Below are positions 29,039 to 64,000 of a stretch of DNA of 64,000 nt, in pieces. The stretch comes from an uncultured Marinoscillum sp. GTDB lineage: Bacteria; Bacteroidota; Bacteroidia; Cytophagales; MED-G16. How positions within the stretch are numbered: the first letter of the stretch is position 1; each line of letters begins with the position of its first letter. The position numbers were made by a program, and so were the translations under genes. The stretch is from the NCBI GenBank assembly GCA_964527965.1, contig CAZGPH010000005.1, positions 16,395 through 80,394 of the forward strand. Direction: 5' to 3'. The notes under the pieces are model-generated. The model searched no databases. It was not told where the DNA came from and saw only the letters and a program-made list of their open reading frames with translations.

Positions 29039-29998
29039 CTAAAAAATATCGAAAGCTTTTAGCCTAATAGAGTAAATTGGGACATTATTTCTTACATTAT
29101 CCCCAATAAAGTTATTTATAAAAATTTCTATTGATGTCTTATCGTAAAAGTTAAGAGCAACACCTGCAAAAACCTCAACTAGATCTCGAGAACCACCCAT
29201 TACCGAAATGTTTCCAGAAAGAGGGATTTTAGCTCCAAAAGAATAGAAATTTGGTTCGTCATCAATAATTACATAGTTACCACTAAGCGAAAGTATACTT
29301 TCTCCGATAGGTACATCATATGATACTGTGGCTATAGTAGCATTTCCAAAAGGATCAAATTTACCCTCTTGATAACTATATTTTTCTTCGCTAGTTAGGG
29401 CAACTTTTGAAGAGATTCCTATCAAAAAATTTCTTGTGTATACAGTAATTCCTGGAGTAATTCCAAATAATGATTGTTTAAATCCACTATTTGACCAGTT
29501 CTGATAAAGTGGATCAGAAGTATCCCATGCTAGAAGATTAAACTTATCTTGAGAGAATGATGCTTTCATAGCAAACATTACATTCATTTCTCTATTAAGT
29601 TGTTGTCTATAACCAAATGTTAAACCAGCTGAAAGTCTTCTAAAAATATCATTTGAGTAATTCAATAAGTCAATACTTGTCTGGAAGTGATTATTAGTAA
29701 TCCTCTGAGAATTTCTTGTTCCACTGTTACTTGAGAAGTATCCTGGAGCGGGACAATATATCATATTATCTGTCATCCTAAAACTTGCAGAAGCATAACT
29801 TAGGGCAGAGTTAAACCTTGATCCTCTGAGTGATCTTGTGTCAAGAATTGTCAGGGAATTTCTTCCATCAATTCCGGATAGAGCTGGATTTACCAATATG
29901 TTATTGTCTGATGCACGAAGTATCTCTACATACTCCTGAGAGTAAGAAGTCAAGAAGGTAAAAAAACTAAGAAATAGTATTACAAATTTTTTCATCAT
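29039..29998 (-). CDS. PorP/SprF-family type IX secretion system outer-membrane protein (copy 2)
   Basis: Has a signal peptide ending in SYSQ and an early NPALSG motif. The beta-barrel-like periodicity, the size of about 320 aa and the position immediately downstream of type-B CTD cargo (4-nt overlap) all fit. Confidence 0.7.
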   Translation of the reverse strand: MMKKFVILFLSFFTFLTSYSQEYVEILRASDNNILVNPALSGIDGRNSLTILDTRSLRGSRFNSALSYASASFRMTDNMIYCPAPGYFSSNSGTRNSQRITNNHFQTSIDLLNYSNDIFRRLSAGLTFGYRQQLNREMNVMFAMKASFSQDKFNLLAWDTSDPLYQNWSNSGFKQSLFGITPGITVYTRNFLIGISSKVALTSEEKYSYQEGKFDPFGNATIATVSYDVPIGESILSLSGNYVIIDDEPNFYSFGAKIPLSGNISVMGGSRDLVEVFAGVALNFYDKTSIEIFINNFIGDNVRNNVPIYSIRLKAFDIF

Positions 29999-32766
29999 CT
30001 ATCTAAAAATATTACTCCAACAATGGTTCTGGCCCTAATGTCACCATATTCAACAGGTGTTATCTCATAAAAATACATCCCTCTCTTCGCATCTCCAGTG
30101 GTATTTTTATCTACACCATCCCATATAATGTCATTATTCACAATACCATCAAACACTATTCTCTGGTACCTGTCCATTATCTTGACCTCAAATGTAACGT
30201 TTCCAAGTATTATATTCTTATATTTTACAGTAAAAAAGTCATTGAACCTATCTGAATTAGGAGTAAAGTATGATGGAAGCTCATACTCTGGATACTGGAT
30301 GTTTTCAATATTAATTAGAACTTTAGCGTAGTTAGATATACAGCCAAGGGAGTCCTGAACAGCATATGTAATACTATCTCTTTTAGTAGGAGATCCTATA
30401 TAATCATACGTTATTGTACCATCATTATTCACAACTAAATCCCCGTATAATGGCGGATCTAATATAAAAATACTTGAGGAATCAAGCGGATTATCAATAT
30501 CAAAATCATTTGCTATTAAATCTTTAGTTATAATATCATTAGTCAATGCATTCACAGATATTGTGTCATCTAAAGCTGTTGGACAATCATTAATTGAGTT
30601 GATTCTAATAGTTACAGTAGCCTTATCAGAGCAACTTGTAGAAGGATCCGGGTCTGTTATTTCATACTCAAATGTTACAATTTCAGGTCCAGGAGGACTT
30701 ATTTGAGTTGGTGGTGTGTATGTAAATGATCCATCAGACCTTAACTCTAAGTTCCCAATAGAAGGTGCAATAGTTACAGCATAGTTATTATCAGTAATTA
30801 CCAAGTCATTATCAGTATCATTTTTTGCAACTGTAGAGTCTAATACCTGTCCTTCATTTATAAAAAATGAATCATCTACTGCATCAGGACAATCGTTAAC
30901 TTGGTCTATACATATCGTAACTATGGCTGTGTCTAAACTATAAAAGTCTCCGTCAAATGCTACATATGTAAAGTAATCACTATCATCTTCACCACCATCG
31001 TGTGTGTAAGTAAACGTGCCGTCAGGATTAAAGAGAAGTGTACCGTGGGATACTCCTTGAATTAATTGAGCAGTTAAAATACTATCCTTTGGATCAGGAT
31101 CATTATCATTTCCTAGTACTCCAGTCGAATATGTGGCAATATTTAATGTTTCTCCCTCTTTAAGACATGGTATAAATCCATCATTATTTACTACAGGAGG
31201 TTTATCATTGACTGAATCAACCGATAATATAACTGTATATACTGAACCATTGCATTCCCCGTCTGAAAGTCTATAAGAAAATTGATCTTCAAAATTTTCA
31301 CTGTCATCATGTGTGTAGATAAAAGAACCATCAGATCCTAATGTAAAAGGACCAGCATGATATAATGGAGGTGTGATTAGAGATGCAGTTAACACATCAC
31401 ATGTATTATCATCTGTATCATTAAATAAGACACCAAGATTAGCTCCTATACTGATAGTCTGACCCTCTGATATTTTATAAAAATCATTTTCACCAATAGG
31501 ACACACATTATTTATGGTGATAAATACAGTATCTATAGATTCCGTAAGAGAATCTTTGACCTTGAATAAAAAATAATCTTCATTAGGCATATCTGTGCAG
31601 TCATGTTTATATATAAATGATCCATTAGAATTTATATCTCCAGAAGGAAGTAAAGTTCCCCTGAATGGATCTTGAAAAATTTCAACTGAAAGTTCAAGTC
31701 CAAGGTTACTTGATGAAACAGTAAGAATACTCTGTGATGAGTCAACCACAAGTTCCTTTCCTTCATCTACTGCAAAACTTAGTGAGCTAGTAGTAGGAGA
31801 TGGACTATTTATGCTAATAAAAACTGTGTCAGTCTCAACTGCATTATCTTGCCCATCTGATAGTTGGTATACAAAGTAGTCTTGATTAGGTATAAATGTA
31901 CCATCATGGATGTATATAAATGTTCCGTTAGAGTCTAGACTAAATGTGCCTATGTGCATACTTGGCGGCTGAACAAGAGTTACTCTTAACGTATCACATA
32001 CAAAAGAGTCAACATCATTTAGTAATATGCCATTTAACTCGTCAACATTTAATGTAGCACCATGATCTACAGAATACATATCTGGCTCTCCGAAAGGTGC
32101 CTCATTCTGAATAAATATAATAACACTATCTTGAAGTTCCGATGTCAGAAGACCATCATTAACTTTATACTGAAACACATCTAATGTTGCGTCATTACAT
32201 CCGTGGATATATGTAAAGGCTCCTCTGTTTCCAATTGAAAATATACCTTCGTTATAAAAAGGAGGAATGGTAAGTACAGCTCTTAATTCACTATTTATAT
32301 TATCTGTATCTAAATCGTTTTTGACTATAAGTAAAGAATCTGAATTTAAAACTACCAAAGTATCTCCCTCATTCACATAAAAAGTATCCTGAACAACTAC
32401 TGGCTTATCATTAACTGGCGTAATGCTTATCACAACGTCTGCAGTATCAAAACAAACTCCGTCTGTCATTACATATGTAAACAAATCAGAATAAAATTCA
32501 TCTCCAGCGTGCTGGTAGGTATAATCACCGTTAGACTCGAAAGTAAGAGAACCATGGTCAGGTAAATTAATAACGCTAAATATTTGGAGAAGATCACCAT
32601 CTAAATCTATATCATTACTAAGAACATTTCCATTAGTTATACCTCCCTCGTTAAGGATATTTCCATCATCAGCAGCAGTAGGACAACTATTTATATCATC
32701 TCCAATCAAATTACCATTAACTGAAAAGACAATTAAAAAAAGAAGGGCAAATACTTTTCTTAGCAT
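29995..32766 (-). CDS. secreted protein with 8 cadherin-like/'tandem-95'-type repeats of about 100 aa and a T9SS type B C-terminal domain
   Basis: Each of the eight repeats has the pattern ...GVLxNDxD...L.a.L...P.hG.l.l..dGsFtYthd....D.F.Y...DG......v.I.I..vND.P. The C-terminus is YFTPNSDRFNDFF...GMYFYEI...GVIFLDR. I place the start at the internal Met (MLRKVFALLFLIVFSVNG signal peptide). The track start at 32814 would add 16 aa. Confidence 0.75.
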   Translation of the reverse strand: MLRKVFALLFLIVFSVNGNLIGDDINSCPTAADDGNILNEGGITNGNVLSNDIDLDGDLLQIFSVINLPDHGSLTFESNGDYTYQHAGDEFYSDLFTYVMTDGVCFDTADVVISITPVNDKPVVVQDTFYVNEGDTLVVLNSDSLLIVKNDLDTDNINSELRAVLTIPPFYNEGIFSIGNRGAFTYIHGCNDATLDVFQYKVNDGLLTSELQDSVIIFIQNEAPFGEPDMYSVDHGATLNVDELNGILLNDVDSFVCDTLRVTLVQPPSMHIGTFSLDSNGTFIYIHDGTFIPNQDYFVYQLSDGQDNAVETDTVFISINSPSPTTSSLSFAVDEGKELVVDSSQSILTVSSSNLGLELSVEIFQDPFRGTLLPSGDINSNGSFIYKHDCTDMPNEDYFLFKVKDSLTESIDTVFITINNVCPIGENDFYKISEGQTISIGANLGVLFNDTDDNTCDVLTASLITPPLYHAGPFTLGSDGSFIYTHDDSENFEDQFSYRLSDGECNGSVYTVILSVDSVNDKPPVVNNDGFIPCLKEGETLNIATYSTGVLGNDNDPDPKDSILTAQLIQGVSHGTLLFNPDGTFTYTHDGGEDDSDYFTYVAFDGDFYSLDTAIVTICIDQVNDCPDAVDDSFFINEGQVLDSTVAKNDTDNDLVITDNNYAVTIAPSIGNLELRSDGSFTYTPPTQISPPGPEIVTFEYEITDPDPSTSCSDKATVTIRINSINDCPTALDDTISVNALTNDIITKDLIANDFDIDNPLDSSSIFILDPPLYGDLVVNNDGTITYDYIGSPTKRDSITYAVQDSLGCISNYAKVLINIENIQYPEYELPSYFTPNSDRFNDFFTVKYKNIILGNVTFEVKIMDRYQRIVFDGIVNNDIIWDGVDKNTTGDAKRGMYFYEITPVEYGDIRARTIVGVIFLDR
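29998..30291 (-). other. T9SS type B (gliding-motility-associated, CHU_C-like) C-terminal sorting domain
   Basis: The last ~98 aa read YELPSYFTPNSDRFNDFFTVKY...IMDRYQRIVFDG...WDG....G....GMYFYEI... Confidence 0.7.
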
Positions 32767-32830
32767 GTATTGTAATTTGATATTTAACGCAAATTTAGTC
32801 AATATATTTTCCAAATCTTAATTCTAAAGT

Positions 32831-35800
32831 CTAATCTCTTTTAATAAAAACAAAGCCAGTAAGTGGTTTTGTATCATTTCCTAGATCTAAAATATAGAAG
32901 TATGTTCCCTCAGGTAATGCTCCATCACCAAAAAATATCTTCATCTGATTAGTACCGTCCCAGTCGTTACTATATTTTCTTTTCTCAAATACCCTATTAT
33001 TCCATCTGTTATATATTCTAATTTTATGATTTGGATACTGTTCAAGTCCCCTAATTACCCAAGTGTCATTTATCCCATCATTATTCGGTGAAAATCCATT
33101 AGGAATATGTAAGTCCTTATGATAGACCTCTATCTCAAATGGGGAGGTAAGTATATCATCTTCACATAAATAGGAAGGCGATGATATAATAAGCCTATAG
33201 CTCAAGAAGATGTTATCTAACTGATTCTGATCAAAGTTTACACCTGAAATTTTTAATAAATTAGTATTTGACCCTGTGTAAGATGTCAGACCCATGACCG
33301 TGTCAGATATGTTCTTCCAGAATAGACTGTACTCATCTTGTACCTGCCACTGGTAAACAAATCTGTTGGTTAAGTTAACATCTACAAATAGGCTGAATGT
33401 ATCACCTTCTCTAACTAGAGAATACATCTCAGGAGAACTTAATATATCTATAGTAAAGCCTTCCTCTAGGAAGTCATAGGTGCCATTATTATCATTATCC
33501 ACTGGTAATTCATATCCTGTATCAGAATCGACTAGACCTAATGAATCTACAGAAACAGGACTATTTCCAAGCATTCCATCATTATCTTTATCTTGAAACC
33601 CTGCCTCCCTCACATCAAAACAATCATCGTCGTCAGAGTCAAAGTCTCTGTTATTATTTCTTCCATCAGAATCTACGTCATTGCACACATAGGCATAAAT
33701 TTTATTGTCGGAAATAAAAGTTGATGGGCCGTCATGGTTAGTGTTTTTCACTTCTAAATTAAACCCTTCCTTACATGAGAAGCTAAAACTCTTATCTAAA
33801 ACCCAACCATCAACGGTATTATCCATATAAGGTATCACATCTACCATCTGACCGTCAATAGTCTCAGAATATAGTTTAATAGATCCGTCTCTTATCACTA
33901 ACTCTATTTTTATATTTTTATCCCAAGGGAACCATTTATTTCCAAAAATTCCTCCATTAAACTCCCTTGTGAGGTAAGGATCAGCTTTCCCACGGGTCAC
34001 ATCCCAGTGGTACTGATTAAATGAAAGTATTGTCTTTCCGTCAACCCTCACTTGTATGCCATCATCAAAGTTCATGTCAGACACGTAGTAACAGCTCTCG
34101 TATACATCTCCTGGTGACACAAACATAGAGACGTTAATATTATTACCATATATGTCTCCAAATCCTCCAGATCCAGTATTTCCTGTGAATTGAGCTACGA
34201 TAGGATACCCAGATGTTATAAGCGTATCTACATCACCACTTATAAGTAAACTTGAATTGTTTTCACATTCTAAAGAGTCGTAAATTCCGTCATTGTCATC
34301 ATCTAGATCAGAAAAATCTCCGACAAAGTCCACGTCAAAATCTTTAGCTATTTTAATTCTAAAAGGATCAGAAACTACCTGTCCTCCACAAATGAATGAT
34401 GGAGTTGATACAATTACTCTAAATATTCTGTTATTATAACTAATGTCTGCATTCATAATTTCAAGGATATTTGAGGTGTTAGATAGTCCTTCCCAAGTCA
34501 TACCTCCGTTATCACTTACTTGCCACATAAAAAGCACTTTAGTGTCTGAATTTTTAACCTCAACTGTTACACTTACTGAGGAGTCACTTCTCTCTACAAT
34601 GTATACGTCCGATGGCTCAACAATAATATTTACTTCAGACCCAAAATCAAGGTAATCCGAAATGAAGTTACTGTCTCTATCCACTGGATCTGTGTACCCA
34701 TTTCCATCTCCCCCACTAATAACCTTACCATTTTCATCAACAACAACTGGAACGCCTCCTAACATACCGTCTCCATCAGGGTCAGAAAATCCAGCTTCTA
34801 TCACATCATCACAACCATCTCCGTCTGAGTCTTGATCAAAAGAGTTAATTATACCATCTCCATCTGTGTCTCCATTACCTTCTACATAATCATATATCCC
34901 ATCATTATCATCATCAACATCATCTGTGTCAGGAATACCATCAACATCATTATCAGGTAATACAGTTAGTAATCTAGAAGTACTTGTTGTGTCATCTCCG
35001 CATCTGTAGGATGGAGTAGAAACTATCACCCTATATAGATTTTTAGATAAGGTAAGAGGTGCTCCCAAAATCTTTAAAGTATCTGTAGATACTCCTGAGT
35101 ATGGTAAAGAATCCTCAACAATTTGCCATGTTATACCACCATCCTTTGAGAGTTCCCATGTATATGAAATATTACTTAAAGATGAAGATGAAACAGCAAA
35201 GTAGGTATCACTCTGCTCTGTAATAATTTGTGATTCAGATATAGAATCTAGAGATACTGGACCTCCAAACTCTAAGAAGTCATAAACCCCGGAATTATCA
35301 TTATCCTCAGGTACTTTGTAATTACAGAACCCATAATTTCCTGAAATTATAATATCGTCTATTATCCCAAATAGGAAATCTCCCGAATCCTGAGAACCTC
35401 CAATTAGAACAGGTGAACTATTTAAACCTATCCCGGTTGAATCCACAAATGAGAGTACAGTATCACCATTAACAAAGTGCGTATACACATCCCCATCTTT
35501 CTGTATTACGAGGTGGTACCAATCAAATTGATTAAATAGTGTCTCCACTGAAGGCATTTCATCTTGTCCATCACCTACATCAAAAATAAGTTCTGAGGTA
35601 TCGTTCACATATTCATACTTATATACCCAAGATGAATCTGTAGAATACTTTTGAATTAATGGCTTTGTTTCTCCAGAGTTAATTAGATCATAAGGTTTTA
35701 CCCATAATGAAACAGAAAATCTCTCATACAAACCTAGATTTAGAAGTGAATCATGAACAACAGATATGTAGTCATCAACACCATCAAATAAGTATGCTGA

Positions 35801-38800
35801 ATTTGGGATTCCAAATCTATCTGCATCTAGAGAAGGGCCGTTTAAAATTCCATTGAAATTATTACCTGAGGAGTCAGCAGAGTTACCGCTAAAATCATAT
35901 TTTGCTATATATTCTTCAACTACAAGACCTAAACCGTCAACCTTGACAGGTGAATTACCTAGTATCCCGTCATTATCAGGATCTACACAACCAGATTCCA
36001 ATACATCAAAGCAACCATCACCGTCTGAATCGAGGTCAAATGAGTTTATTATACCATCACCATCAGCGTCTCCATCACCCTCGTAAATATCATATATACC
36101 ATCGTTATCGTCGTCAAGATCATCTTCGTCAGCAATTCCATCTTTATCATTATCAGGTAGTACAGTTAGTGCAACACTGGAAAACACATCTTCATCACAT
36201 ACAAATGCTGGAGTCGAAATTTTAACTTTGAACTGGTACTCATTAAATTCAAGTGGTGCGTTAGTGAGAGTAAGAACAGATGAATTTGTTCCTGTATAAA
36301 TAGCATTATCAGCAATATCTAGCCAATTTTCCCCCTCATCTTCTGAAACCATCCACTGAAATATTGCTGTGCCATCAACTAAATATTCTACCTCATATCT
36401 TGCGTCTCTTGTCTCTATGATAGAAACACTTAAAGGGTCAGAAGTGATAGTGATAGCAGATCCCTTTTCAAGGAAGTCATACACTGCATTAGAGTCTCTG
36501 TCAAGAGGATTAACATACCCATCCAACCTCGGAATTACTGTGCCTAATGAGTCTACTTCTACAGGTGATGTACCAAGAATACCGTCTCCGTCTCCGTCAG
36601 TAAAACCAGCCTCGGTAACATCTAGACATCCGTCTCCATCAGAATCAAGGTCAAAAGCATTAGGTATGCCGTCAGAATCTGCGTCCCCGACCCCCTCATC
36701 TACATCAAAGATGCCGTCATTATCATCATCTAGATCATCAACATCTGGAATTTTATCCTTGTCATTATCAGGAAGACAATTTAGCACGGCACTACTACAA
36801 TAAACAGGTTCCGAGCAATAAAGTTGGTTTGATATCACTACCCTATACTGATTTTGATCCATCTCGATCACCACACTATCTATTTTTAAAGTATCAGAAT
36901 TTATCCCTGAGTATACACTTGTATCCGCTAAATTGATCCATCCCTCTCCGAGGTTGAGTTGCCACTGGTACGTTATAGGACCTTCGTAATCTACACCCAC
37001 AAAGAAAAAAGTTTGTGTTTCTATTGCGATCCTCACATCTTCAGGGTCTAAGGTAACCAAAGGACTTAATGAGACTTCCTTATAGTCTTTAACTCCGTTT
37101 ATATCTAAGTCTAAGGGGTCGGTGTAGCCGTCTTCTACAGGTTGTCCCCCTCCTAATGCCGAACAAGTTCCAGTTATTATAACACTCTGATTATTTACTG
37201 AACCACCAGTTGCGGCAGTAAAACCATAATAAACCTTTGAATTACCATTAAATATTTCATTTACTATGTCTTTTGTAGAGGAAATTATTACGTTTCCATC
37301 CCAAGAAACAGTTAAGTTTTTGTTTGTGCTATTCCAGCTAAATATGACTTCATGGTAAATATTATCAGCTATCTCTGAGGTAAATATATACTCATTGTTA
37401 TGTATTGACGTCTGACCATCATATACAATGGCTGCATGATCACCATCTGGATCATTTGTATTCCACTTATATGTATCAAATTCAACGGCTACAGAAGGTG
37501 CTATTCCCATGTAACCAATACCACCTCCCGTTGAACCCTGATCTGAAGATAATGGCTGCAAAACAAATGCTATTCCATCTGCACCATTCGCACCTTGAAT
37601 ATTTCCTAAATTTAATTTAGACTTAACTTCAAAATCTTTTGAGAGGTCAACAGTTTCCAGAGACCATACGGCCCCAGACTGGTTACCTAACTCTTCTGTA
37701 AGTAGGTAAGAACTATCTGTCTCAATAAACTGTGCTGAACCTACAATGTTATAGTCAGTAACATTCAGAGGAGAACATTCTTGAATCCCATCACATCCAA
37801 TAACTACACCTAGAGAGTCAACTACAACGGGTGAGATACATAATATTCCGTCATCATCAGGGTCACTAAAACCAGCTTCAACAACATCAAAACAACCGTC
37901 TCCATCTGTGTCAAGGTCAAAACTATTAATAATCCCATCTCCGTCTAAATCGGTAGTATCCTCCTCAGAGTCAAATATCCCATCATTATCGTCATCTAAA
38001 TCTATCTCGTCGGGTACACAGTCCCCGTCATTGTCTGGAAGCATTTTTATTGAGGCAGCGTTTGTGGTATCTCCAACACCACATACAAATCCTTTGGTCT
38101 CCACAATTGCCCTGTACATATTTCCGACAAAAGAGCTATCAAAATCAATTATCTTAAGCTTTTTATCAATAATACCCTCGTAATTCTCTACATCAAATAT
38201 CCTCTTCCAAGAGTTACCTGAGTCATAACTTACCTGCCAACGGTAAGATACGTTTACTCCTTCTCCCTCAGCCTCGAAGAATAAGTCAATATTATCTAAG
38301 TCTGGACAGGGTTCTAATATTATATCTTCAGGGTGTGTGACTATAGAGAGCTGGAATCCATTTTCCCTGAAATCAGGAGCTCCGCTTCCATCTAGGTCAG
38401 CTGGTAGTGTGTACCCGTCAACAACATCAGTATTATCATCATTTTTAATCACCATACCACGGACGTCTACATATACTCCATTTGTAGAGCCATACCCCAA
38501 AATTCCGTTATTGTCTTGGTCTGTGAACCCTGCCTCTTGTGTGTCAAAACATCCGTCATTATCAGAGTCTAGATCATACCTGTTAATTAGGCCGTCTCCG
38601 TCAGTGTCTTCATCTCCCTCCCAGGCATCTAATATCCCATCATTGTCATCGTCAAGGTCATCAGCGTCAGTCACACCATCTTCATCAAAGTCTGAGTATG
38701 AATAAAAATAACCAGCAAGACCCTGTACCGAGTTATATCCGTAGTACTGACCATATACAGGTCCGTCAGATTCTATGGTAAGTCTTTTGTCAGGACCTAG

Positions 38801-40684
38801 AGGAAGTATAGTCGCGAGGTCTGAGTTATCGAAAAGGTACCATGAGAGGTCATCTCTACCCTCTATAGTCTCTGTGAAGGGTGTGTATGAGCTTGCTTGA
38901 GTACCATTTAGCTTAAGGTCTGCACCTGTAGAAGATAGTATCCTTAGTTCCATCTCAAACTTTGTGGTTGCAATATCTTCGATATTATAGATTCCGTCAA
39001 TCTTATTTGAAGCCAAAGGGTTAATTCCACTCACAAGCATCATCGCCTGTTTTGCAGCATTCCCATCCTGTCCGGCCATATTCTGGTACCCGTAAACTCT
39101 CTTGTTTGAGAGGACATAAATCTGGTTATCAGAAGTTACGTTATCACCTCCAAAGTATAGTAATTTATACTCACCAGCATCTATTATATGATCTGCAGGA
39201 GTTGAGGCAGTATCTGCTGCTGCTGTGTGTAGCCATATCTTGGTATTGTCTTCGTGAGCGACAATGATCGCGTACTCGTTGGTATTACTCTGCTCACCAT
39301 TGATATTAATTTCTCCTCCAGATCTAAGGAAGACATACTCATTTGATACATTTTCAATCGGTTTTATCTGGTCAAAACCTATATCCCTTCCGTTCCCCTG
39401 CCAGGAATTACTTCCTCCCCAGAATCCAACGTTAACAACAATATTTTTATCAGACTCAAGAAGAGCACCTACTAACGCGTCATAATGTTCTAAAGATGAA
39501 CCCGGAGTGTTATCCAGTGCAAATGCGTGTGTCTGGTACTGGTTCAGGAAGAATGTATAGTCTCCATTGCTATCTAAAACGTAGTCTTGACTATTACCAA
39601 GGACATTTTCCCAATCTGATTCCTCCCCACCAAGTCCTGACAATTTGACTTCAGTCAGATCTTTTTCAAGTGCTAAAACAGTGAAAAATACTCTCCTGTG
39701 TATCGACTGAATGTTTGATATCCCATGACCTAATCTGAAAGTTTTACCTGAAGCTGACTCACCCTTAAGAAATGAAGAGTTTGCCTGCTGACGGTCATAG
39801 AAATTAAGTGATGACCCGTCGTCCCACCTCCAACCTCCGGAAGGTTCAGAATATAATGGGTCAGAGGGATCTTGGAATAGACCTATCCAAGGACCATATT
39901 CCTGATCTTCAAAAGGAAGTTCTTCAAACCAATCGACGATTTGATCTTGTTCCTCTTGAGTATTTATACTTACTAAGTACCCGCCTAGTCCTATTGCTAT
40001 ATCTCTTGACTCTGTCCAAGTGAATTCATTTAATTCACTTTCTATATTTGACATAAAATAGCTGTGACCATCAAAAAAACCAAGAAATATATAGTCAATA
40101 CCCAAGGAGTCCAGATTATAATCAAACTCAACTATAAAAGGAAGTTTATTATTATTAGATAGATCATTCCATAGCCCATTCCACCAGATATGTGCATAAT
40201 TTTCCTCACCATTGTCATTAGAACAGCAGTCATTAGGTTCATCAAAATCTCCTTTAGTATTCCAACTCGTATACTGTGTAAGTACATTAGGATCAAAATT
40301 TCCTGCCTGAAACCTTGTCTCTACAAATATTGGGATAGGTTTTGAGAGGCCGACATCACTAAAACCTTCTACCATCATACCCTTATCAGAGAGGTTGCTA
40401 CCTAGGTCTTCAGTTAAAATTATAAGTGGGGTCTTCTCATCGTTCCCCACCCTATAGGATATGGACCTACCCTTAATTAGAGTCAAAACATCATAATCTT
40501 GGGATCCAAACTTTGAAACCTTAATATAGATGTCATCATCATCATGAGGAGATGTTATGTATATATACTGTTCTTTTGCGAAGAGTGTATTCTTCTGGTT
40601 TGAGTGAACTGGGCCAACGTAATGGACTATAGACTGCGAGTAGACATTAAAACAAAGGAAAAATAGAGGTATAAGTAGTCTCAT
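32831..40684 (-). CDS. 2,617-aa secreted modular adhesin-like protein (TSP3-like Ca wires, Ig-like, C-type-lectin-like, L-type-lectin-like and LamG domains) with T9SS type B C-terminal domain
   Basis: Has a signal peptide [17 protein letters not shown]. It carries 5 full and 2 partial acidic modules of the form [66 protein letters not shown]. It has 6 Ig-like domains (Y.WQVS.D.G..W ... Y..G..t..L.I ... YR.vvs.P...C). Lectin and LamG domains are listed below. The C-terminus is [19 protein letters not shown]....[10 protein letters not shown]...GTYFYIL. Confidence 0.85.
32834..33115 (-). other. T9SS type B C-terminal sorting domain of the 2,617-aa protein
   Basis: Residues ~2524-2617 read [54 protein letters not shown]...[12 protein letters not shown]. 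Confidence 0.75.
35330..35905 (-). other. LamG / concanavalin-A-like lectin domain (Laminin_G_3-like)
   Basis: Residues ~1594-1785 read [47 protein letters not shown]...FSVSLWVKP...[20 protein letters not shown]...VLIGG. Confidence 0.6.
37160..37762 (-). other. L-type (legume-like) lectin domain
   Basis: Residues ~975-1175 read [27 protein letters not shown]...[28 protein letters not shown]...[35 protein letters not shown]...[18 protein letters not shown]. Confidence 0.6.
39797..40267 (-). other. C-type-lectin-like domain with apparently permuted segment order
   Basis: In residues ~140-296, [12 protein letters not shown]...[16 protein letters not shown]...PFIVEF (the C-terminal-half motifs EPN, E and WND) comes first. 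GHSYFMSN...[32 protein letters not shown]...PWIGLFQD...[17 protein letters not shown] (the N-terminal-half motifs) follows. Confidence 0.5.
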
Positions 40685-43074: not shown

Positions 43075-43076
43075 AT

Positions 43077-44024
43077 CTAAAAGTATCTAGGTGATTTGAT
43101 AATGTCTTTCTTCTTGAACATAAAATCATACCTTAGCATTATCTCGTGACTTCCTCCGTTGTACTTAAATGTAGTATTTCCTAGTGAGTAGTCGTAAGTA
43201 TAACCTATTGCTATATTATCATTTAAATTAATTCCTGCCATTAGTCCAAGTCCTCCACCAACTTTACTAGTTGGTATAATTCTTCCCATAGCTGTCCTAG
43301 CCATTCCACCTAGCCAGAAAAAGTCTTTGAATACTGCATAGGCACTAATATCCATAGTAATAGGAGCATTCTTAGTCATCTTAAAATATACACTTGGCCT
43401 TAATTTTATATCTCTACTAATCTCAAATAATGCACCTCCAATCGCAAACAAATGTCTCTGTGATTGGTCAAATTCTTTTTCTAATAAATTTGGCACTGAT
43501 AAGCCAGCGTACCACTTCGTAGTATTATAGTACACTCCAGCTCCAACATTTGGAAGAAATTTCTTTCTTACGTCTCTACTAAATGAAGGGTCTATCTGGT
43601 CAGGATCTCCCGCGTCTAAATCTAACATTGAGAAGTCAGAGCTGTACGCGTTACCTCCACCTTTTATTCCAAATGAGAGTTTATGTCCACTCTGGCTTAC
43701 CTTTAAGTGGTAAGCTAAATCTATGGCAAAGTATGTAGATTTTATAGGTCCTATCTTATCATTAAGTACAGATAAACCAAAACCAAGTTCGTCGTTAAAA
43801 AGAGGTGAGTTTAGTGAAAGAGTCTGTGTCCTAGGGGCCCCGTCAAAATTTATCCACTGAGATCTCAGCACAGAAAGTACACTTAATACCTCTCTAGAAC
43901 CGACATAACCTGGATTTATTGCCTGAGTGTTGAACATGTAATGACTAAACATAGCGTCCTGTTGTGCTCTAGCCGAGAAGCTAGCACTTATGACAACTAA
44001 AAACAATATTACTTTTCTCATCAT
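43077..44024 (-). CDS. PorP/SprF-family type IX secretion system outer-membrane protein (copy 1)
   Basis: Has a signal peptide MMRKVILFLVVISASFSARAQ followed by QDAMFSHYMFNTQAINPGYVGSRE, the classic PorP/SprF N-terminal motif. I prefer the start at 44024. The track start at 44066 would overlap the giant gene. It lies 13 nt downstream of the giant gene's stop and 2 nt upstream of the OmpA gene. Confidence 0.8.
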   Translation of the reverse strand: MMRKVILFLVVISASFSARAQQDAMFSHYMFNTQAINPGYVGSREVLSVLSVLRSQWINFDGAPRTQTLSLNSPLFNDELGFGLSVLNDKIGPIKSTYFAIDLAYHLKVSQSGHKLSFGIKGGGNAYSSDFSMLDLDAGDPDQIDPSFSRDVRKKFLPNVGAGVYYNTTKWYAGLSVPNLLEKEFDQSQRHLFAIGGALFEISRDIKLRPSVYFKMTKNAPITMDISAYAVFKDFFWLGGMARTAMGRIIPTSKVGGGLGLMAGINLNDNIAIGYTYDYSLGNTTFKYNGGSHEIMLRYDFMFKKKDIIKSPRYF

Positions 44025-50000: not shown

Positions 50001-53000
50001 AGACACTTATATCTTTCACTGACTGGCTGTTCCAGTAATTTCCGGTAGAAGCTGTAAATCCAAAGTTTACCTGGCTCATTCCAAAAACTTCTGAGACAAT
50101 ATCTGAGGTTGCAGAGACAATTTCAATTCCTCCTATTGAGACAGCGAGCTTATTAGCATCTGCATCCCAAGAAACTGAGATGTTTTTGTATGTGTTATCT
50201 TCAAGCTCTGAAACATTTTTCGTGGATAATACTGTCCTAGCACCATTTTTAAGAGATACTATCGCGACAAAGTCTTCAGTCTGGCCGTGAGTATCAAACT
50301 CTACAGCAATTGCATTACTGATATTTCCACCTCTATATCCAAGGTTTGCGTAATTAGATCCATATGCTGAGGTACCATTTGGCTGGAGGACAAACGCCAC
50401 TCCCTCACCTCCGTTGCTACCATACGAACCGAAATTAATTTTTGATGAGACAACAAAGTCTCTGTCAATATGTATCTTCTTCTTGTTCCATAGCTGACCA
50501 TCTCTGTAACTGGTACTTGTCAAGTAGAAGTAAGATGTCTGCCAAGAAGCGTTATCTTGAGTGAACCAGTCATAGTAGTTGAAAGGATAATTACTCATTG
50601 CACCACCTACCGCAGTTCCTTTAGCTACGAAGTATACTGCTGTACCTTGGGTTCCAGATACAGTGTCAGGGCTTGAGACAAGAACTGCCACAGTTCCAAA
50701 CTCAAGGAAGTCAAAAGTACCCGAGTTATCGTTATCAGCTGGTAGTGTGTACCCGTCTGAACCAGAAGTTACAAGTCCTAGAGTGTCAACAGTAACAGGG
50801 GAGTTTCCTAATAAACCGTCGTCATCTCCGTCAGTGAAACCAGCCTCTACAGCATCAAGACATCCGTCTCCGTCTGAGTCAAGGTCAAAATGGTTAGGGA
50901 TTCCGTCACCGTCAGTGTCTTCGTCTGTCTCTAGAGAGTCTAAAATACCGTCATTGTCGTCGTCTAAGTCAATTTCGTCAATTATTCCGTCCTTGTCATT
51001 ATCAAGGAAAATAGCAACCCTGATACAGTCTCCTCCTGACTCTGGAGAACAAGCGTAAGCAGGATCAATAACAGCCCTTCTGATCCTCACACCGTCTAGT
51101 GTAGCGGTCGCGTTCTTAAGAGTAAGGTTATCAGAATCAACATCTTCGAATGTAGGTGCACCAGCAAAACCTCCCACTGGGAATGGGTTATCCATCTCAG
51201 TATTGAAGCTAGAACCTAGAGAACATCCCCTACACGTCTTCCAGTCATTCACGTTGAATGTAGAAGAGTAAATTCTTCCGTCTTTCCTGTATGCCCATCC
51301 TAGAGTATAATCCCAAAGCTCTCCCGAGCCGTCTTTACCTGGGGTGCCAAACACGTCCACAATGCTATCGTTTTTGTAAAGAACTATCGCGTCGTCACCG
51401 TCAAAGTTATTATACAGAGACTGCTGTGAAGGATTATCTCCGAACCATGACTTGTAGTAGAGGTCATTTGATGACACCGTGTAGAACTTACCAGAGTCTA
51501 GAGATACTGCGCTGAGAGAGTACTCTTCTCCGTCTGAGGCAGCACCGTCTCTCGCTATCTCTATACCGTAAATACTAAGGTCAGCAATGTCTTCGAGTGC
51601 ATAGAATTCGATAACAGAAGGCTCTATCCCTCCAATATCTCCCCTGAATATACCTGTCATCATAAGTCCCGGAGACTTCTCGATGATTGTACATTCTGAG
51701 CAGTCGTCGTTACACATCTGCCATACCACGTCACCAGTTCCATCGTAAGTTACTGATGTTGTGAATGTTGTGTCAGAACCCTCTTTTACAATGACTATGT
51801 CGTCGTCTTCGTAGCTGTCAGAGAATTCAGGGACATCTCCAGCCTGCTTGAAGTCGTACATTCCGTTGTCGTCAAGGTCGTTAGGTTCCTTGTATCCTTT
51901 ATATATAGACTCTCCAGAAGAGGCATCTATCTCGCAGATGCTCTTGATATACACTCTCTGCTCTTGAGCATAATTATAGTTATCTGAGGTGAATCCGAAG
52001 TACGCCAGATTAGATCCGCTGAGCACGTCTTTTACTATATCAACCTGGTATGTCATGAGAACTTTACCATCGAACTCGACAGTTACAGTCTTAGTAGATG
52101 CATTCCATGAGAACACAAACTCCCTCCACTGTCCGTCTTCAATATTTTCCAATGTCTCGGTGATGATTGGACGCTGTGAATGGTAATTATATCCATAACC
52201 ACTAGTTGTAGTTACTCCAAGAGTAGATGTTCCAGCAATATTATTACCATTTATATGTAAAGAGGAGTGGTCAGCTTCTGGGTCATAACTACCATCGTCT
52301 CTCGTATCAAACTCGACAGATAATGCGTTATTAAACTGCATTGCCATCTGTCCCCAATAATATAAAGAGTATTGGTTATTATTTTGTGTGATATTGAATG
52401 CTATACCTGAACCACCATTACCATCTTTATCTCCTAGGTAGAGGTCGGCCTTTATGACAAAGTCTCCTCTTAGGTCTACCCTGCCGTTATTTGGAGATCC
52501 CTGCCTGAACACAGAACCATAATTGTACGTACTGGCATTAGTTAGTCTGTAGTAACCTGGTGTTTTTTCAGAGTCAGCTACATATCCTGCGTTTTGTCCT
52601 GTTTTCCAAGACATGTTTGTGTAAGGGTCATCATCACAGCTTGAGTCGTCTAAACACACAACCTTACCTAAATCATCTACGACAACTGGGCTAGTACATA
52701 GTAACCCGTCTCCGTCTAGGTCTTCGAATCCAGCCTCTTCCACGTCGAGACACCCGTCATTGTCTGAGTCTAGATCAAACCAGTCTGGAATTCCGTCACC
52801 GTCTGTGTCTATACCTGTCTCTACAGAGTCTAATATCCCGTCATTATCGTCATCTAAATCGATTATATCTATTATTCCGTCTTGGTCGTTGTCTCCAGCT
52901 AATATAGCTGAAACAACCGCTGAAGGTGTGTCTGGACCACACTTGAATGAAGGAGTGCTCGCAACCAGCCTGTACTGATAATCACCCATTGCAAACGTCA

Positions 53001-59000: not shown

Positions 59001-62000
59001 CCTGGTCATTGTCCTGGTCACCTGTTCCCTCGTACGTATCTAAGATACCGTCATTGTCGTCGTCTTGGTCATCGGAATCTCTCACTCCGTCCTTGTCATT
59101 ATCAGGGTAAACTGTAAGAGTAGCCTCTAAATTAAGAGGCGCGACACCACACTTGTAAGATGCAATAGTCAGTACTACCCTGTACCTGTAACCAGAAAGT
59201 TCAGCACTTGGCTGAGTAAGTATTAACTCGTTTGTGTTTGTGCCAGAGTACGGGGCCTGTTCTGGAACATTAAACCATGATGCTCCATCGTCCCTACTCT
59301 CTTGCCACTGGTAGGATATTTGATCCCCAGAAGGTACGGAAGCAGTAATCTTGAAATTACCAGTTCCAGACGAAAGCATCGTAAGATTTGACTGGTTTAG
59401 TATTGCGTTGAGAACATTCTGTCCAAATTGCAGGAAGTCTTTTGATCCGTTACCGTCTTGGTCAACAGGCGTAGTGTAACCATCTCCAGCCTGACCTGAT
59501 GTGATCCTACCAAGAGAATCAACAGTGTAAGGGAGGTCATCACCTAAGATACCGTCGTCGTTAGTGTCTATAATTTTATCAGTAAACCCAGCCTCTGTGA
59601 CGTCTAAACATCCGTCTCCATCCGAATCCAGATCAAATCTGTTCCTTATACCGTCTCCGTCAAGGTCTCCCTCACCCTCGTCAGTGTCAAGGATACCGTC
59701 GTTATCGTCGTCAAGGTCTACATTATTTAAAATTCCGTCATTATCATTGTCTACATCGACATCCAACCTTGCAGGAGGAGTATATGTCGTGTCATGACAT
59801 GCGTACCCAGGAGTAGTTATCCTTAGCCTGTACCTCCACTCGTCCATTCCCTGAGTGACATCGTAAATATTCAGAGTACTTTCATATACACCACCATAGG
59901 AAGCAGATCCTGTGTTAACACAAATTCCTTCAAAATTTATACCTATTCCTCTGCTGTCTGGGTCTAGTATTCCAGACACGTCTGAGTACTTAATAGTAAC
60001 TGTCGAGACGCCGTCAGGGAAGGTTAGCCTTGCTGTTCCCTTATTATCGGCAGCAGACTCGCTATTATCTTTAGCAGTAAGTGTGTTTCCACTTATTGAG
60101 AATGTAGGGTTAGCATTTAGTGAGTCGGCAGTAGGATTACCCACATCAGAGGTAACTACTATCTTATCCTTCCACCCTGCTGTCTTAGAGTCAATATCTG
60201 TAAGTAGAATTCTAAGACCACTCACTGGGTTTGTAAATGTTATAGTCGTTGTAACCTCAGAATTACCAGATCCAGACTTAGGGTCTAGGCTTAGTCCTAA
60301 TGTCTGGACACCACCAAAAGCAGAATTCTCAATTTTTGGGTATCCAGTATCCCACACCACATCAGTGTTTTCAGTAATTTTTATAGTAGCATCGGTACTA
60401 GTACCTTGCATAATGTCTTTGAATGTACCTTCTAAGTTACCACCAGTCCATGTCCACGGTCCATTACCCCAGTCCGATGTGGTACACACGTCAGTGGCAC
60501 CTGTAGAACCTGTTCCGTTATCCCCAGCATCAATATCTGTCCAGGTATTTGCATTATCTTTTGACACCTGCCAGTGAAGTTTAGTAGCTCCAGAAGCATT
60601 ATAGTTGACATTAAAAGTGGCCGTGTCACTACCTTCAGAAAGGAAGTAATTACTATAATTTACTATAGTTACTGTACTACCTACTTCTAAGTAGTCAGCA
60701 GTTCCGTTACCGTCCTCGTCCAGAGGGGTATCGAAATTGTGGTCTTTAACTCCACCATCAGATTCTACTTCTGGGGTTCCTGTTCCCAAAATCCCATCTC
60801 CGTCAGGATCAGTGAAACCTGCCTCGACAACGTCAAGACACCCGTCACCGTCAGAATCTAAGTCAAACTTGTCTACAATTCCGTCACCGTCAGTATCCGT
60901 GTCTTCACCCTCGACTGAGTCTAAGATTCCGTCGTTATCATCGTCAATATCTGTGTCATCAGGTATTCCGTCTCTGTCATTATCTCCAACCACTGTTATT
61001 GTAACTGCACAGGTAGTGTCATTATCTCCACAAACGTAACTTGGAGTACTTCCTATTGCCCTGAACTGGTATCCGTTAGCAGAAGCTGGTACATTAGTTA
61101 CCACTAAGGAGTCTCCCTTTGAGAAATCGTAATCAATTACAGAAGTAGTAAATGTCTTGACCGGGAATGGTGTCGTGGCTCCTGCGTTAGTAGAAGACTC
61201 AAGGCAGTCCTTACACTGCGTCCAGTCGCTGTCGCTATAGTTAGGTGTTGGCTTAGAACCTTGCTTCCTATATAACCACCCGTCATCATAATTTAATACT
61301 GTCGAAGCTGTTCCATTTCCTACCCTGTCAACGTAAGTCCAAGTGTTATTTATATTCTTCTCTAGGGCGTAGGAATCATTACCATCCCTCATAGTAGTAT
61401 AAAAATAGTCTTCGTATACGGTGTGGTCATATAAGTTATCAATATCAGAACCGAAGAATGTATTTGCGGTAGACTTATCAGATGGGTAGTAGATGAGTAG
61501 GTACTCGCCCTTCTTCATCTGGATATTTTGTTGGTACATAACCCAAGAGTAATTATATGTGTTACCGTTTGTAATATTATCCCTCATCCTGTAATTTCTA
61601 AGGTCTGCATCTTTTAAGGCATATATCTCAATGAACTTAGGGTACCCGTCATTACTAGTTGAAGTCTTTCCATATCCTATCCCTGATATAATAATCTCTG
61701 ATGATGATTCGTCATTGACGTCTGACCAGGTCTTACCGGTATCAGCACTTACCTGCCACTCGTAGTTTACAGAGGTCTCTCCCTGCCCACTCGCGATAGT
61801 TATAATTTCTACGTTAGAACCCTCTGTCGCTGTGATGTCGTCAGGACAGCTCATGCTCGTGATAGCAGCTCCAGCCTCCTGGAAGTCTTTTACTCCGTTG
61901 CCGTCCTGGTCAAGTCCGGTGGTTCCAGAAGCTCCAGAGACACTTCCGTTAGAGTTTATGGTAGGGTTTGCGTCTCCATACACTCCGTCATTATTAGGGT

Positions 62001-64000
62001 CTCTGTCAGTGGAAGTACCATATGCCTCGTCTACATCGTAGCAGCCATCATTATCTGAATCTAAATCTTTTGAGTCAGGGTTACCATCTCCGTCAGTGTC
62101 GGTGACACCATTTCCTTCCTGGGTATCAAGGATACCGTCATTGTCATCGTCCACATCGATCTCATCCCTTATGCCGTCTAAGTCGAAGTCATCTCTCACG
62201 AGTAGAGTTGTTACTGCTGAAGTGTCAGCAACAGCACAAGCAAAGCCTGGATTTGTGACAATCACCCTGTACTGGTAGCCATTTAAATCATCAAATACTG
62301 GGTTTATGGTAAGAGAATTTGTTCCGTATCCTGTGTAGGCAGTAGTAGTAGTAGTAGATGAAACCGCTTCCTTTATACTTATACCATCAATAGAGAGATA
62401 TGCTCCAGTTGAACCAGAAGATGTAGGTGTAGTTTGTACAACAAATCCAATACTATAATTCCCTGTTGTCGGAGCAGTATAATTTAAGCTCGCGTTATTC
62501 CATCCAGTTCCATGTACCATCTCGCCTCCGTCTCCAATAAGAGTTGTTGGTGCATTCGTACCAGCGTCAATAAAAACTCTTATTTTTCCACTATTATTAA
62601 GTTTAAAACTATTACAATCAGAACTATTACAAGCACCAAAATTAGCTTGCTCATAGCTTATAGTGTAGGTTTCACCTGCTTCTAGGGAAACATTTTGATA
62701 TATTCCTTCCTCATAACTCATATCAGTTCTATCGTGGAATCCAACCCAAGTACCTCCATCATTAGAGTTTGAAACATTAACACCATCAGGAATATAGTAA
62801 GTACCACCCACAGCCTCATTTTCAAGATTATTGATATCAGATGTTATGTCTGAAGCAAGCCTAGTCCAACCAGTCGGTGCAACACAACATTTTACAGTAC
62901 CATCTAAGGAACCATTTGTAAATAAATTTACTCCAGATCCAGATCCCGAAGTAAAGGTAACGGTATCATTTTCAGCGTTTATCGTGGTCCAGTTCGTCGA
63001 GTCGCTACTCACCTGCCACGTGTAACCCACAGTAGATGGGTAATCAACAACAGTCCACCCTCCCACAGGTTCTGAGTAATCTGGGCTGCTGGTGTCTTGG
63101 TAGTGACCAATCCAAATATTTCTACTAGTTCCTTTTTTGGCTCTCACAGCCTCATGTATTAGCTGATTCTCTGCTGCGTCTCCAATGACCGTGAGATAAC
63201 CTCCAATTCCTTCTGCAGTTGTCTTAGCCGTGGTCCAGTAGCGCTGATAATTATCACTCACATAGTATGAGTGACCATTATAATCGTCCATAAGCTTTGT
63301 GAATCCAGAGATAGCATCATTTCTTGTCTTATTAAACTCAACCACGATCCAGTTATAGGAGTTACTTACATCATCCCACCTACCATTACTTATATACATA
63401 TGCATATAATTTCCTGAGTTATTAGGCTCACCACCATTCCAGTTAAAATAAGACGAGGAATTTGGAATTCCATCAATTGTGGTACTTACGACTAGAGAAG
63501 TAGAAGAATTATTAGCCCCAATAGAGGTTGTAGGTAGATCAGAAGATATCGTAGGAGAAAATCCTTTCTCTAAATAATCTGATACCCCAGAATTATCTCC
63601 ATCTGCGGGAGTTCCGTAACCGTGTCCAGTAACCTTACCGTCTGTACCAGCACAGTTAGCATTTGCACATAATCTTCCTTCTGAGTCATAACCACTAAAT
63701 CCTGCCTCCTGCGCGTCTAAACATCCGTCATCGTCTGAGTCGAGGTCTAGTCTGTTAGGTATCCCGTCACCGTCTGTGTCAAGGTCTTTTCCTCCCTCTT
63801 CTGTATCTAGGATTCCGTCGTTGTCGTCGTCAAGGTCGACACTATTTTTTATTCCGTCATTGTCTGGATCAGATGACACTGTAAGCTGAGCAGGGAGTGA
63901 GTAGGCAGGTCCTGCAGAGCAGGCGTATACTGTAGGAGTTGCCTTCATTCTGTACAAGTTCTTATCAAAGTTTGCCGGTGCAGACTTCACTCTAAGCGTG
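44038..64000 (-). CDS. giant secreted modular adhesin-like protein (at least 6,650 aa visible, N-terminus outside window) with T9SS type B C-terminal domain
   Basis: A single uninterrupted minus-strand frame runs from the window edge to TAA at 44038-44040. The frame is still open upstream of the track's GTG at 63990, and no signal peptide is present there. The visible part has 16 TSP3-like acidic modules and 16 Ig-like domains. It also has 5 LTD-like inserts, 2 jelly-roll-like inserts, 3 L-type-lectin-like domains, 1 permuted CTLD-like domain and a 14-unit acidic array. The C-terminus is [21 protein letters not shown]....[11 protein letters not shown]...[10 protein letters not shown]. Confidence 0.9.
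44041..44375 (-). other. T9SS type B C-terminal sorting domain of the giant protein
   Basis: The last ~110 aa read [53 protein letters not shown]...[14 protein letters not shown]...[10 protein letters not shown]. Confidence 0.75.
44930..47775 (-). repeat. in-frame tandem array of 14 poly-acidic units, 64-75 aa (about 192-225 bp) each
   Basis: The unit consensus is (Y/F)[63 protein letters not shown]. I counted 14 occurrences of D[IL]DSD[ND]DGI. The boundaries were mapped by reverse-translating nt 47761-47775 (DIDLD) and nt 44881-44940 ([20 protein letters not shown]). Confidence 0.85.
48215..48825 (-). other. L-type (legume-like) lectin domain, copy 3 of the giant protein
   Basis: Reads [34 protein letters not shown]...[26 protein letters not shown]...[22 protein letters not shown]...NHAAVIFDG...[18 protein letters not shown]. 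It closely parallels the domain at 37160-37762. Confidence 0.6.
49990..50590 (-). other. L-type-lectin-like domain, copy 2 of the giant protein (more divergent)
   Basis: Reads ...[53 protein letters not shown]...[28 protein letters not shown]...[18 protein letters not shown]. Confidence 0.5.
51212..51675 (-). other. lamin-tail-domain (LTD)-like insert 5
   Basis: Reads [54 protein letters not shown]...[44 protein letters not shown]...NDWKTCRGC. Confidence 0.5.
51925..52630 (-). other. L-type-lectin-like domain, copy 1 of the giant protein (divergent)
   Basis: Reads ...[19 protein letters not shown]...[31 protein letters not shown]...[27 protein letters not shown]...[18 protein letters not shown]. 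Confidence 0.45.
54405..54910 (-). other. LTD-like insert 4
   Basis: Reads [44 protein letters not shown]...GKNNVTLEY...[24 protein letters not shown]...QDWTTCDEC. Confidence 0.45.
55610..56098 (-). other. LTD-like insert 3
   Basis: Reads [41 protein letters not shown]...[46 protein letters not shown]...DDWN. Confidence 0.45.
58055..58595 (-). other. LTD-like insert 2
   Basis: Reads [45 protein letters not shown]...[12 protein letters not shown]...[28 protein letters not shown]...GDWTACNDC. Confidence 0.45.
61195..61700 (-). other. LTD-like insert 1
   Basis: Reads [44 protein letters not shown]...[28 protein letters not shown]...[11 protein letters not shown]...SDWTQCKDC. Confidence 0.45.
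63037..63459 (-). other. C-type-lectin-like domain with the same permuted order as in the 2,617-aa protein
   Basis: In residues ~178-318 of the visible protein, [41 protein letters not shown] comes first. [44 protein letters not shown]...NIWIGHYQD...[10 protein letters not shown] follows. Reverse translation of nt 63421-63460 reads [13 protein letters not shown]. Confidence 0.5.

Follow-up and report, generated by a model that had tools for sequence, protein, structure and literature searches.

Carriers of the PorP/SprF family form cognate pairs with the type-B C-terminal domains (CTDs) of type IX secretion system (T9SS) cargos, and a type-B cargo requires its cognate carrier (PMC12618676). 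In Flavobacterium johnsoniae, five or six operons join a type-B cargo to a PorP-like and a PorE-like gene; the cargo of one of them, Fjoh_3952 (whose operon encodes the PorE-like Fjoh_3950), was seen in static foci only (PMC9143113, PMC12618676). In contrast, the sprB-sprF operon and other mobile cargos have no PorE-like gene (PMC9143113, PMC12618676), and SprF's C-terminal tail in the periplasm holds a Cys-X-Cys motif, described for SprF and close homologues only, that is disulfide-linked to GldK and needed for movement (PMC12635249). In Porphyromonas gingivalis, the type-B CTD protein PG1035 is bound to PorP, and PorP binds the peptidoglycan-binding PorE, both PorP and PorE being single-copy core components of the T9SS. 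Here, we compare these systems with a cluster of six genes for three type-B cargos, two carriers and one PorE-like protein in a 64,000-nucleotide stretch of an uncultured Marinoscillum sp. genome (contig CAZGPH010000005.1; the whole stretch is hereafter called the window).

Judged from its sequence, the cluster is one more of the T9SS adhesin operons that combine type-B cargo, PorP-like and PorE-like genes, a class already known. We favor, with a probability of roughly 70%, the reading that it encodes type-B surface proteins with dedicated carriers for static, Ca2+-dependent lectin adhesion, in which a giant cargo and a 2,617-amino acid (aa) cargo would use the first carrier (PorP1) and a 939-aa cargo the second (PorP2). 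It resembles the Fjoh_3952/Fjoh_3951/Fjoh_3950 operon and its four or five sisters in the tightly linked order of cargo, SprF-like carrier and PorE-like protein, and a static wall-tethered adhesin would be expected here as there. Distinctive features of this locus are the far larger cargo (∼7,750 aa) with its predicted multi-lectin, Ca2+-binding design (Asp-rich modules resembling thrombospondin type 3 [TSP3] repeats, immunoglobulin [Ig]-like modules and L-type lectins), a putatively permuted C-type lectin-like domain (CTLD), inserts arranged as domains within domains, a PorE-like protein with two additional Big_9/cadherin-like domains, a further paralogue of 2,617 aa with a compatible CTD downstream and a rare second CTD/carrier pair; the host is a marine planktonic member of the Cytophagales rather than a soil Flavobacterium. 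An earlier annotation made from the letters alone (the sequence-only reading) had suggested an uncharacterised system, but the kind is already known and only these proteins are uncharacterised; the cluster leaves the known paradigm unchanged.

Gene layout, sorting signals and carriers

The six genes, all on the minus strand (as are all cargo features given below), occupy positions 29039-64000 of the window with minimal intergenic gaps. First in transcriptional order is the giant type-B cargo (44038..>64000), whose C-terminal 6,653 codons form a continuous open reading frame, followed by PorP/SprF-1 (PorP1; 315 aa; 43077..44024), which starts 13 nt past the giant's stop, and by the PorE-like OmpA protein (774 aa; 40750..43074), 2 nt past PorP1. 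The 2,617-aa type-B cargo (32831..40684) begins 65 nt past the PorE-like gene, and next comes the 939-aa cargo with cadherin-like/tandem-95 repeats (29995..32814; open reading frame and profile matches), which overlaps the gene of PorP/SprF-2 (PorP2; 319 aa; 29039..29998) by 4 nt; parE and then parC come after PorP2. The 13- and 2-nt spacings and the 4-nt overlap given by the sequence-only reading are exact. Its account of PorP/SprF carriers paired with cargos in the style of sprB-sprF is supported, and published work (PMC12618676) bears out the rule it stated, a cognate carrier being required for type-B cargo. Public gene calls reproduce the 315-aa product of PorP1. Operon structure was read from gene spacing only; a sigma-70 promoter and terminator scan, which does not cover Bacteroidota promoters, returned nothing above shuffled expectation.

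The reading frame of the giant remains open up to the end of the window (base 64000), so that the protein is N-terminally cut here. On public contigs encoding an identical PorP1, gene calls give it 7,747-7,748 aa, which places ∼1,095 codons outside the window and extends the cluster to ∼38.2 kb. This length was taken from gene calls on contigs and not from protein-database matches because database searches with sub-regions of the giant or the 2,617-aa cargo returned fragments only. A 1,441-aa giant in contig L020 is not a real short variant, a scaffold gap of 100 N being responsible, and the gene in long-read contig L030 is broken into calls of 1488, 663, 622 and 4554 aa, probably by frameshift errors. 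The giant gene has 43% GC (0.36 at third codon positions, GC3) against 30-35% (GC3 0.20-0.30) in its neighbours; the Asp/Gly-rich composition explains the raised value in part, and GC3 is raised too. The earlier description of an island of at least 35 kb holds for the extent of the cluster. A mobile island was rejected, as the cluster is syntenic across the clade and adjoins parE/parC.

All three cargos had been read as ending in type-B CTDs, and all reach the cutoffs of CHU_C (PF13585; 27 bits) and TIGR04131 (35 bits). The giant scored 67.4 and 39.1 bits, respectively, the 2,617-aa cargo 98.9 and 57.9 bits, and the 939-aa cargo 34.3 and 35.0 bits, the last exactly at the cutoff. These matches stop 3-25 residues before the stop codon: at 44113..44364 in the giant, its extreme C-terminus (PF13585; residues 3243-3326 of a 3,350-aa C-terminal piece), at 32837-33109 in the 2,617-aa cargo and, for the divergent CTD of the 939-aa cargo, at 30049-30282 (both profile matches). 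By these CTDs, the three proteins class as predicted T9SS type-B cargos. Hydrophobic N-termini are visible by eye in the translations of the 2,617-aa cargo and the 939-aa cargo (MLRKVFALLFLIVFSVNG).

PorP1 scored 257.5 bits against PF11751 (cutoff, 22.3) and 263 bits against TIGR03519 (cutoff, 90.55), values that mark it as a canonical PorP/SprF type-B carrier, predicted to be an outer-membrane barrel. It lies directly downstream of a type-B cargo gene, an arrangement kept in relatives. PorP2 also exceeds the PF11751 cutoff (43.4 bits), but only over model positions 15-164, half of the model, and it falls under that of TIGR03519 (54.8 bits). BLASTP found no significant similarity between PorP2 and PorP1, whereas hhalign matched PorP2 to the PorP1 family with 91% probability (E 9e-7). 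Among 1.84 billion cluster representatives, 20 matched PorP2 at E<=1e-3, and three full-length clusters did so at E<=1e-20. On these profile matches, PorP2 is classed as a highly divergent member of PorP/SprF.

The protein encoded after PorP1 had been recognized as an OmpA-family peptidoglycan-binding protein, which stands; its PorE-like nature had gone unnoticed. It comprises a signal peptide, a tetratricopeptide-repeat/beta-propeller region, two Big_9/cadherin-like domains and an OmpA_C peptidoglycan-binding domain, in that order, with profile matches to PD40, Big_9 and OmpA. Its N-terminal ∼400 residues matched NF053607 (CHU_0125) at 358 bits and NF052230 (T9SS_PorE) at 273 bits, the latter alignment being limited to residues 40-442 plus OmpA_C. 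The best Protein Data Bank (PDB) match of the OmpA_C domain was 6TOP (E 4e-20), the C-terminal domain with which P. gingivalis PorE binds peptidoglycan. On this evidence the protein is PorE-like, not PorE, and the first cassette (giant, PorP1 and this protein) would therefore be of the known cargo/PorP-like/PorE-like operon type. Where P. gingivalis has single-copy core components, the carriers and the PorE-like protein of this locus appear to be cargo-dedicated paralogues.

Static anchoring and the assignment of cargos to carriers

If the models from F. johnsoniae and P. gingivalis apply, each cargo would be Sec-exported and then directed through the outer membrane by the T9SS translocon via its type-B CTD, with a PorP/SprF-family carrier collecting it and keeping it at the cell surface. 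One unit, consisting of the giant, PorP1 and the PorE-like protein, would form a static complex tied to peptidoglycan through the OmpA_C domain, and a second would consist of the 939-aa cargo and PorP2. The giant would be displayed as a very long, acidic, Ca2+-stiffened fibre of Asp-rich and Ig-like modules, bearing as its heads three L-type lectins, one C-type lectin of the EPN type in permuted form, and five inserts of beta-sandwich fold. The proteins would probably serve to attach the cell, in a Ca2+-dependent manner, to algal or particle glycans or to other cells, and not to drive gliding along a track.

As in SprB-SprF, a giant type-B cargo is followed immediately by a PorP/SprF carrier, and the second cassette has no PorE-like gene of its own; both could speak for SprB-like mobile adhesins that are carried along a track and propel the cell, and a gliding adhesin variant was among the roles proposed before. 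We consider gliding highly improbable because the PorE-like partner is present and because the Cys-X-Cys tail and SprB repeats are absent. In F. johnsoniae a PorE-like wall anchor, found here directly after PorP1, goes with static cargos and is missing from the mobile ones. PorP1 contains no cysteine at all, hence no SprF-type Cys-X-Cys tail. PorP2 has a single one, the invariant loop residue Cys82, and ends at the barrel (...LKAFDIF) without a C-tail, so that neither carrier has the periplasmic motif that SprF needs for attachment to the track through GldK. SprB repeats (PF13573) gave no match in any cargo at E<=0.01 to 1, in agreement with the earlier remark that the cargos lack them. The host lineage is planktonic and was recovered in metagenomes and single-cell genomes of the surface ocean, which likewise argues against gliding.

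Among homologues, all PorP1-type carriers followed by a PorE-like gene have the Cys-free tail KKKDIIKSPRYF (the C-tail of PorP1 itself lies at 43077-43110 of the window). The distant PorP1 homologues in L014 and L016, which lack a PorE-like gene within 10 kb, show a tail cysteine (VECPYFF and VECPSYY) reminiscent of the track-linking cysteines of SprF. In this small sample, the split between PorE-like neighbour and tail cysteine fits a static-versus-mobile dichotomy, and the association of a PorE-like partner with a carrier that has no tail cysteine would thereby reach outside Flavobacterium.

Over their last 110 aa, the CTDs of the giant and the 2,617-aa cargo are 44% identical, compared with 29% for the giant and the 939-aa cargo and 25% for the 2,617-aa and 939-aa cargos. 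CTDs found elsewhere directly upstream of PorP1-type carriers gave alignment scores of 170-251 with the 2,617-aa CTD, 132-166 with that of the giant and 40-93 with that of the 939-aa cargo, whereas those upstream of PorP2-type carriers scored 388-474 with the 939-aa CTD and 75-108 with the 2,617-aa CTD. A carrier can also take a non-cognate cargo if the CTDs are closely related (PMC12618676). Given cognate pairing and crosstalk between similar CTDs, we therefore infer two functional units, and since the 2,617-aa CTD is of the PorP1 class, PorP1 is likelier than PorP2 to be its carrier.

The sequence-only reading had instead drawn two independent cassettes, with the 2,617-aa and 939-aa cargos both served by PorP2. 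Gene order is compatible with such sharing, both cargo genes lying between the PorE-like gene and PorP2 with no carrier gene directly after the 2,617-aa gene, and there is a precedent in F. johnsoniae, where three orphan cargos use one carrier (PMC12618676). These orphans, however, have closely similar CTDs (PMC12618676), whereas here the 2,617-aa CTD is closer to that of the giant and groups with CTDs adjoining PorP1-type carriers. PorP2 and the 939-like CTD vary together and form a pair of their own: the 4-nt overlap of their genes is kept in L026, L027, L029 and L031, and a PorP2 relative with 32% identity in another metagenome again overlaps by 4 nt a cargo with a 939-type CTD. The 2,617-aa gene, in turn, is gained and lost without effect on the 939-aa/PorP2 unit. 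CTD classes and comparative synteny leave the sharing of PorP2 doubtful, and we regard the two-cassette arrangement as unlikely. On the sequence evidence, the 939-aa cargo and PorP2 form a presumed co-diverged cognate pair with a CTD subclass of its own and, probably, translational coupling.

The 2,617-aa gene comes and goes among relatives and is a variable accessory paralogue of the giant. It is absent in L009, a contig of the single-amplified genome (SAG) AG-426-P19 (2686-9482), and split in two others, into homologues of 1332+ and 1056 aa in L026 and of 669 and 435 aa in L029.

Several points weigh against static adhesion on two dedicated carriers. CTD similarity is necessary, not sufficient, for carrier specificity (PMC12618676), and the assignment of the 2,617-aa cargo to PorP1 rather than PorP2, although more probable on its CTD class, is only a probability. 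The PorE-like protein is under the equivalog cutoffs of both the PorE (273 against 600 bits) and CHU_0125 models; it has two Big_9 domains between the beta-propeller and OmpA_C, and profile scans detected no carboxypeptidase-regulatory-like domain, which PorE has at that place. The N-terminus of the giant lies outside the window, and a signal peptide is seen only in the 67%-identical orthologue in L030, where it depends on a TTG start at 5188. That the proteins are surface-exposed and bind Ca2+ and glycans is a prediction from sequence, as is T9SS export, which is read from the genes of the window.

Domain architecture of the cargos

Self-comparison resolved the giant into ∼15 modules, each of an Asp-rich segment of ∼120 aa and an Ig-like segment of ∼100 aa, together with five paralogous inserts of ∼190 aa and, towards the C-terminus, an array of Asp-rich repeats of 64 aa. 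This array comprises ∼11 tandem 192-bp (64-aa) repeats with DxDxDG motifs at 45605..47695, identified with Tandem Repeats Finder and by protein self-matches, which have diverged to 70-78% matches. The composition is 16% Asp and 11% Gly (pI ∼4), with 129 DxDxDG motifs. Against the Pfam models TSP_3 (PF02412) and TSP3_bac (PF18884), the Asp-rich module scored 12.8 and 14.9 bits, compared with 25, even on short pieces. A profile of 13 copies matched a bacterial OmpA in its TSP3-like region (5wtl; E 7e-6), and the second half of the module matched calmodulin EF-hand pairs (E ∼1e-3). TSP3-like, putatively Ca2+-binding DxDxDG repeats is a fair description of the module.

Three L-type lectin domains were recovered in the giant with PF18483, at 51943..52581 (78.1 bits; Lectin_legB, 31.3 bits), 50014..50556 (114.3 bits) and 48232..48822 (legume-like; 169.1 bits). 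Their sum over the three copies is 311.5 bits, for a gathering cutoff of 78.3; the first is 0.2 bits under this cutoff when a 720-aa piece is scanned alone. The 2,617-aa cargo, which also has TSP3-like/Ig modules, contains an L-type lectin (37175-37756; PF18483, 142.3 bits), a Laminin_G_3 domain (PF13385; 35345-35785; 45 bits) and an IgGFc_binding domain (38738-39757; 80.6 bits) that the sequence-only reading had not listed. In the 939-aa cargo, seven cadherin-like/Big_9 repeats were found (Cadherin_4 [PF17803], 255 bits; Big_9 [PF17963], 231 bits), and the match to the BapA/LapF-family model NF045619 was weak (76.9 bits).

Both larger cargos contain a CTLD, at 62995..63507 in the giant and at 39755-40327 in the 2,617-aa cargo, in which the half with the EPN...WND/WDD Ca2+-sugar motifs (EPN...WDD in the giant) precedes the N-terminal half. 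In natural order, the giant domain scored 14.7-18.8 bits against Lectin_C (PF00059), below threshold, the 18.8-bit match covering model positions 3-52; after in-silico un-permutation, it scored 26.5 bits over positions 3-97. The domain of the 2,617-aa cargo scored 22.8 bits in the whole protein (gathering cutoff, 22.6), and 29.5 bits (positions 4-64) in natural order against 38.4 bits (positions 4-104) un-permuted. Profile matches to PDB CTLDs (E ∼1e-6) cover the two halves in swapped order. That the rejoined halves give one full-length Lectin_C match in both cargos indicates a circular permutation of the domain. An AlphaFold2 (AF2) model of the region was poor (pLDDT, the predicted local distance difference test, 54; Foldseek matches meaningless), for which reason the assignment rests on sequence profiles and the un-permutation test.

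Five paralogous inserts of the giant (61135..61722, 57991-58614, 55555-56136, 54355-54936 and 51130-51708) had been called lamin-tail domains (LTDs). No Pfam match was found for them at E<=1, LTD (PF00932) included, and no PDB sequence match. Their AF2 model is a beta-sandwich (pLDDT 65; predicted template modelling score, 0.72) with weak Foldseek matches to the Wzt carbohydrate-binding domain (E 4e-3) and to lamin tails (E 0.03-0.05; template modelling score, 0.3-0.5). With no sequence support and a weak fold resemblance, the LTD identity was not accepted, and we refer to them as LTD-like. These inserts and the CTLD of the giant sit inside Ig-like modules, as domains within domains; the strand W-x-x-S-x-D-x-G-x-x-W stands before the insert and the strand YR-V-x-STP-x-x-C-G after it. 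Beyond window base 64000, the orthologue in L030 (5188-5600) carries at its N-terminus a signal peptide together with a cupredoxin-like domain (HPF...YICTLHSQM, with amicyanin-like Cys-His-Met spacing).

From the earlier list of domains, L-type lectin, LamG, cadherin-like and C-type lectin (permuted) domains stand; TSP3 is TSP3-like only, at sub-threshold scores, and LTD is unsupported. To describe them as typical of eukaryotic extracellular matrix was an overstatement: neither TSP3 nor LTD reaches its Pfam threshold, and among solved structures the Asp-rich module comes closest to a bacterial OmpA. Large Ca2+-dependent repeat adhesins such as MpIBP of Marinomonas primoryensis, SiiE and LapA/BapA are substrates of the type I secretion system with repeats-in-toxin (RTX) signals and periplasmic retention modules. 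The giant would share with them multi-thousand-residue, acidic, Ca2+-stiffened Ig-like repeats and sugar- or ligand-binding domains, whereas the cargos described here would be T9SS type-B cargos on PorP-family carriers.

The multivalent lectin architecture would also suit the catching of other cells, and the products could be released, either as shed fibres or matrix or as a contact or capture device like the T9SS-secreted grappling hook GhpA of Aureispira. In a related marine member of the Cytophagales, type-B cargos adjoining porP include GhpA-like candidates suggested by HHpred (PMC12998431). However, similarity of the present cargos to solved structures was confined to lectin, Ig, OmpA and EF-hand folds, the carrier and PorE-like genes argue for retention at the wall, and nothing in the locus points to predation; we therefore judge release very unlikely and retain surface-held, static adhesion as the preferred reading. 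A bolder version of the latter combines three propositions: that the 939-aa CTD and PorP2 are a separate, very rare subclass of sorting signal and carrier, that the giant is a peptidoglycan-tethered, Ca2+-stiffened multi-lectin fibre with a circularly permuted EPN-type C-type lectin among its domains, and that its bearer, an abundant, free-living planktonic bacterium, catches algal glycans, particles or host cells with it. We put this combination forward tentatively, as it is rather improbable that all three hold jointly; if they did, surface-ocean bacteria would possess in this fibre an attachment organelle of major importance that has gone unrecognised.

Conservation, host and neighbouring genes

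The closest genomes are metagenome-assembled genomes and SAGs of uncultured marine Cytophagales labelled Marinoscillum or Flammeovirgaceae. An identical PorP1 is present in 62 assembly blocks, Tara Oceans samples among them, and dozens of ocean metagenome assemblies, from Tara and other sources, carry the locus in near-identical form. The order of giant, PorP1, PorE-like protein and 2,617-aa cargo is kept in L001-L004, L006 and L007 (PorP1 80-99% identical). On the SAG contig L009 (PorP1 74% identical), which is without the 2,617-aa gene, the PorE-like gene is followed by the 939-aa cargo, PorP2, parE and parC, and in other lineages the 2,617-aa homologue is split or shortened while the pair of cadherin cargo and PorP2, 4-nt overlap included, does not vary. 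The only genes found upstream of the L030 orthologue of the giant are housekeeping genes in divergent orientation. As a near-identical locus recurs in dozens of ocean assemblies, the cluster probably shapes the encounters of this lineage with particles or phytoplankton; this marine planktonic bacterium of low GC devotes ∼38 kb of coding sequence to three surface proteins with the partners that export and anchor them. For work on the T9SS, the locus offers a test set in one place, with one canonical and one highly divergent CTD/carrier pair and an "orphan" cargo whose carrier is predictable from its CTD.

Three contigs 77-93% identical to the locus (L005, L008 and L013) are in bins labelled Gammaproteobacteria and Methanobacteriota archaeon, labels that likely reflect binning contamination. 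In L026 (11106-19084), the adhesin cluster is expanded: PorP2 is not next to parE and is followed by a 514-aa unknown protein, a VWA+OmpA protein, a 1,618-aa SprB-repeat protein and further cadherin/CHU_C cargos. Elsewhere in the window, two Sortilin/Vps10-BNR repeat proteins of 988 and 1,088 aa (3565-6531 and 10591-13857) flank an amino-acid-metabolism block (ornithine cyclodeaminase, a pyridoxal phosphate enzyme, fatty-acid hydroxylase and aminotransferase), and L030 has a gene of similar Sortilin/BNR type upstream of its orthologue of the giant. Adjacent outer-membrane genes for a DUF3575 protein (189 aa) and a Porin_10 protein (630 aa) at 16325-18783 adjoin lpxK and appear unrelated to the cassette.

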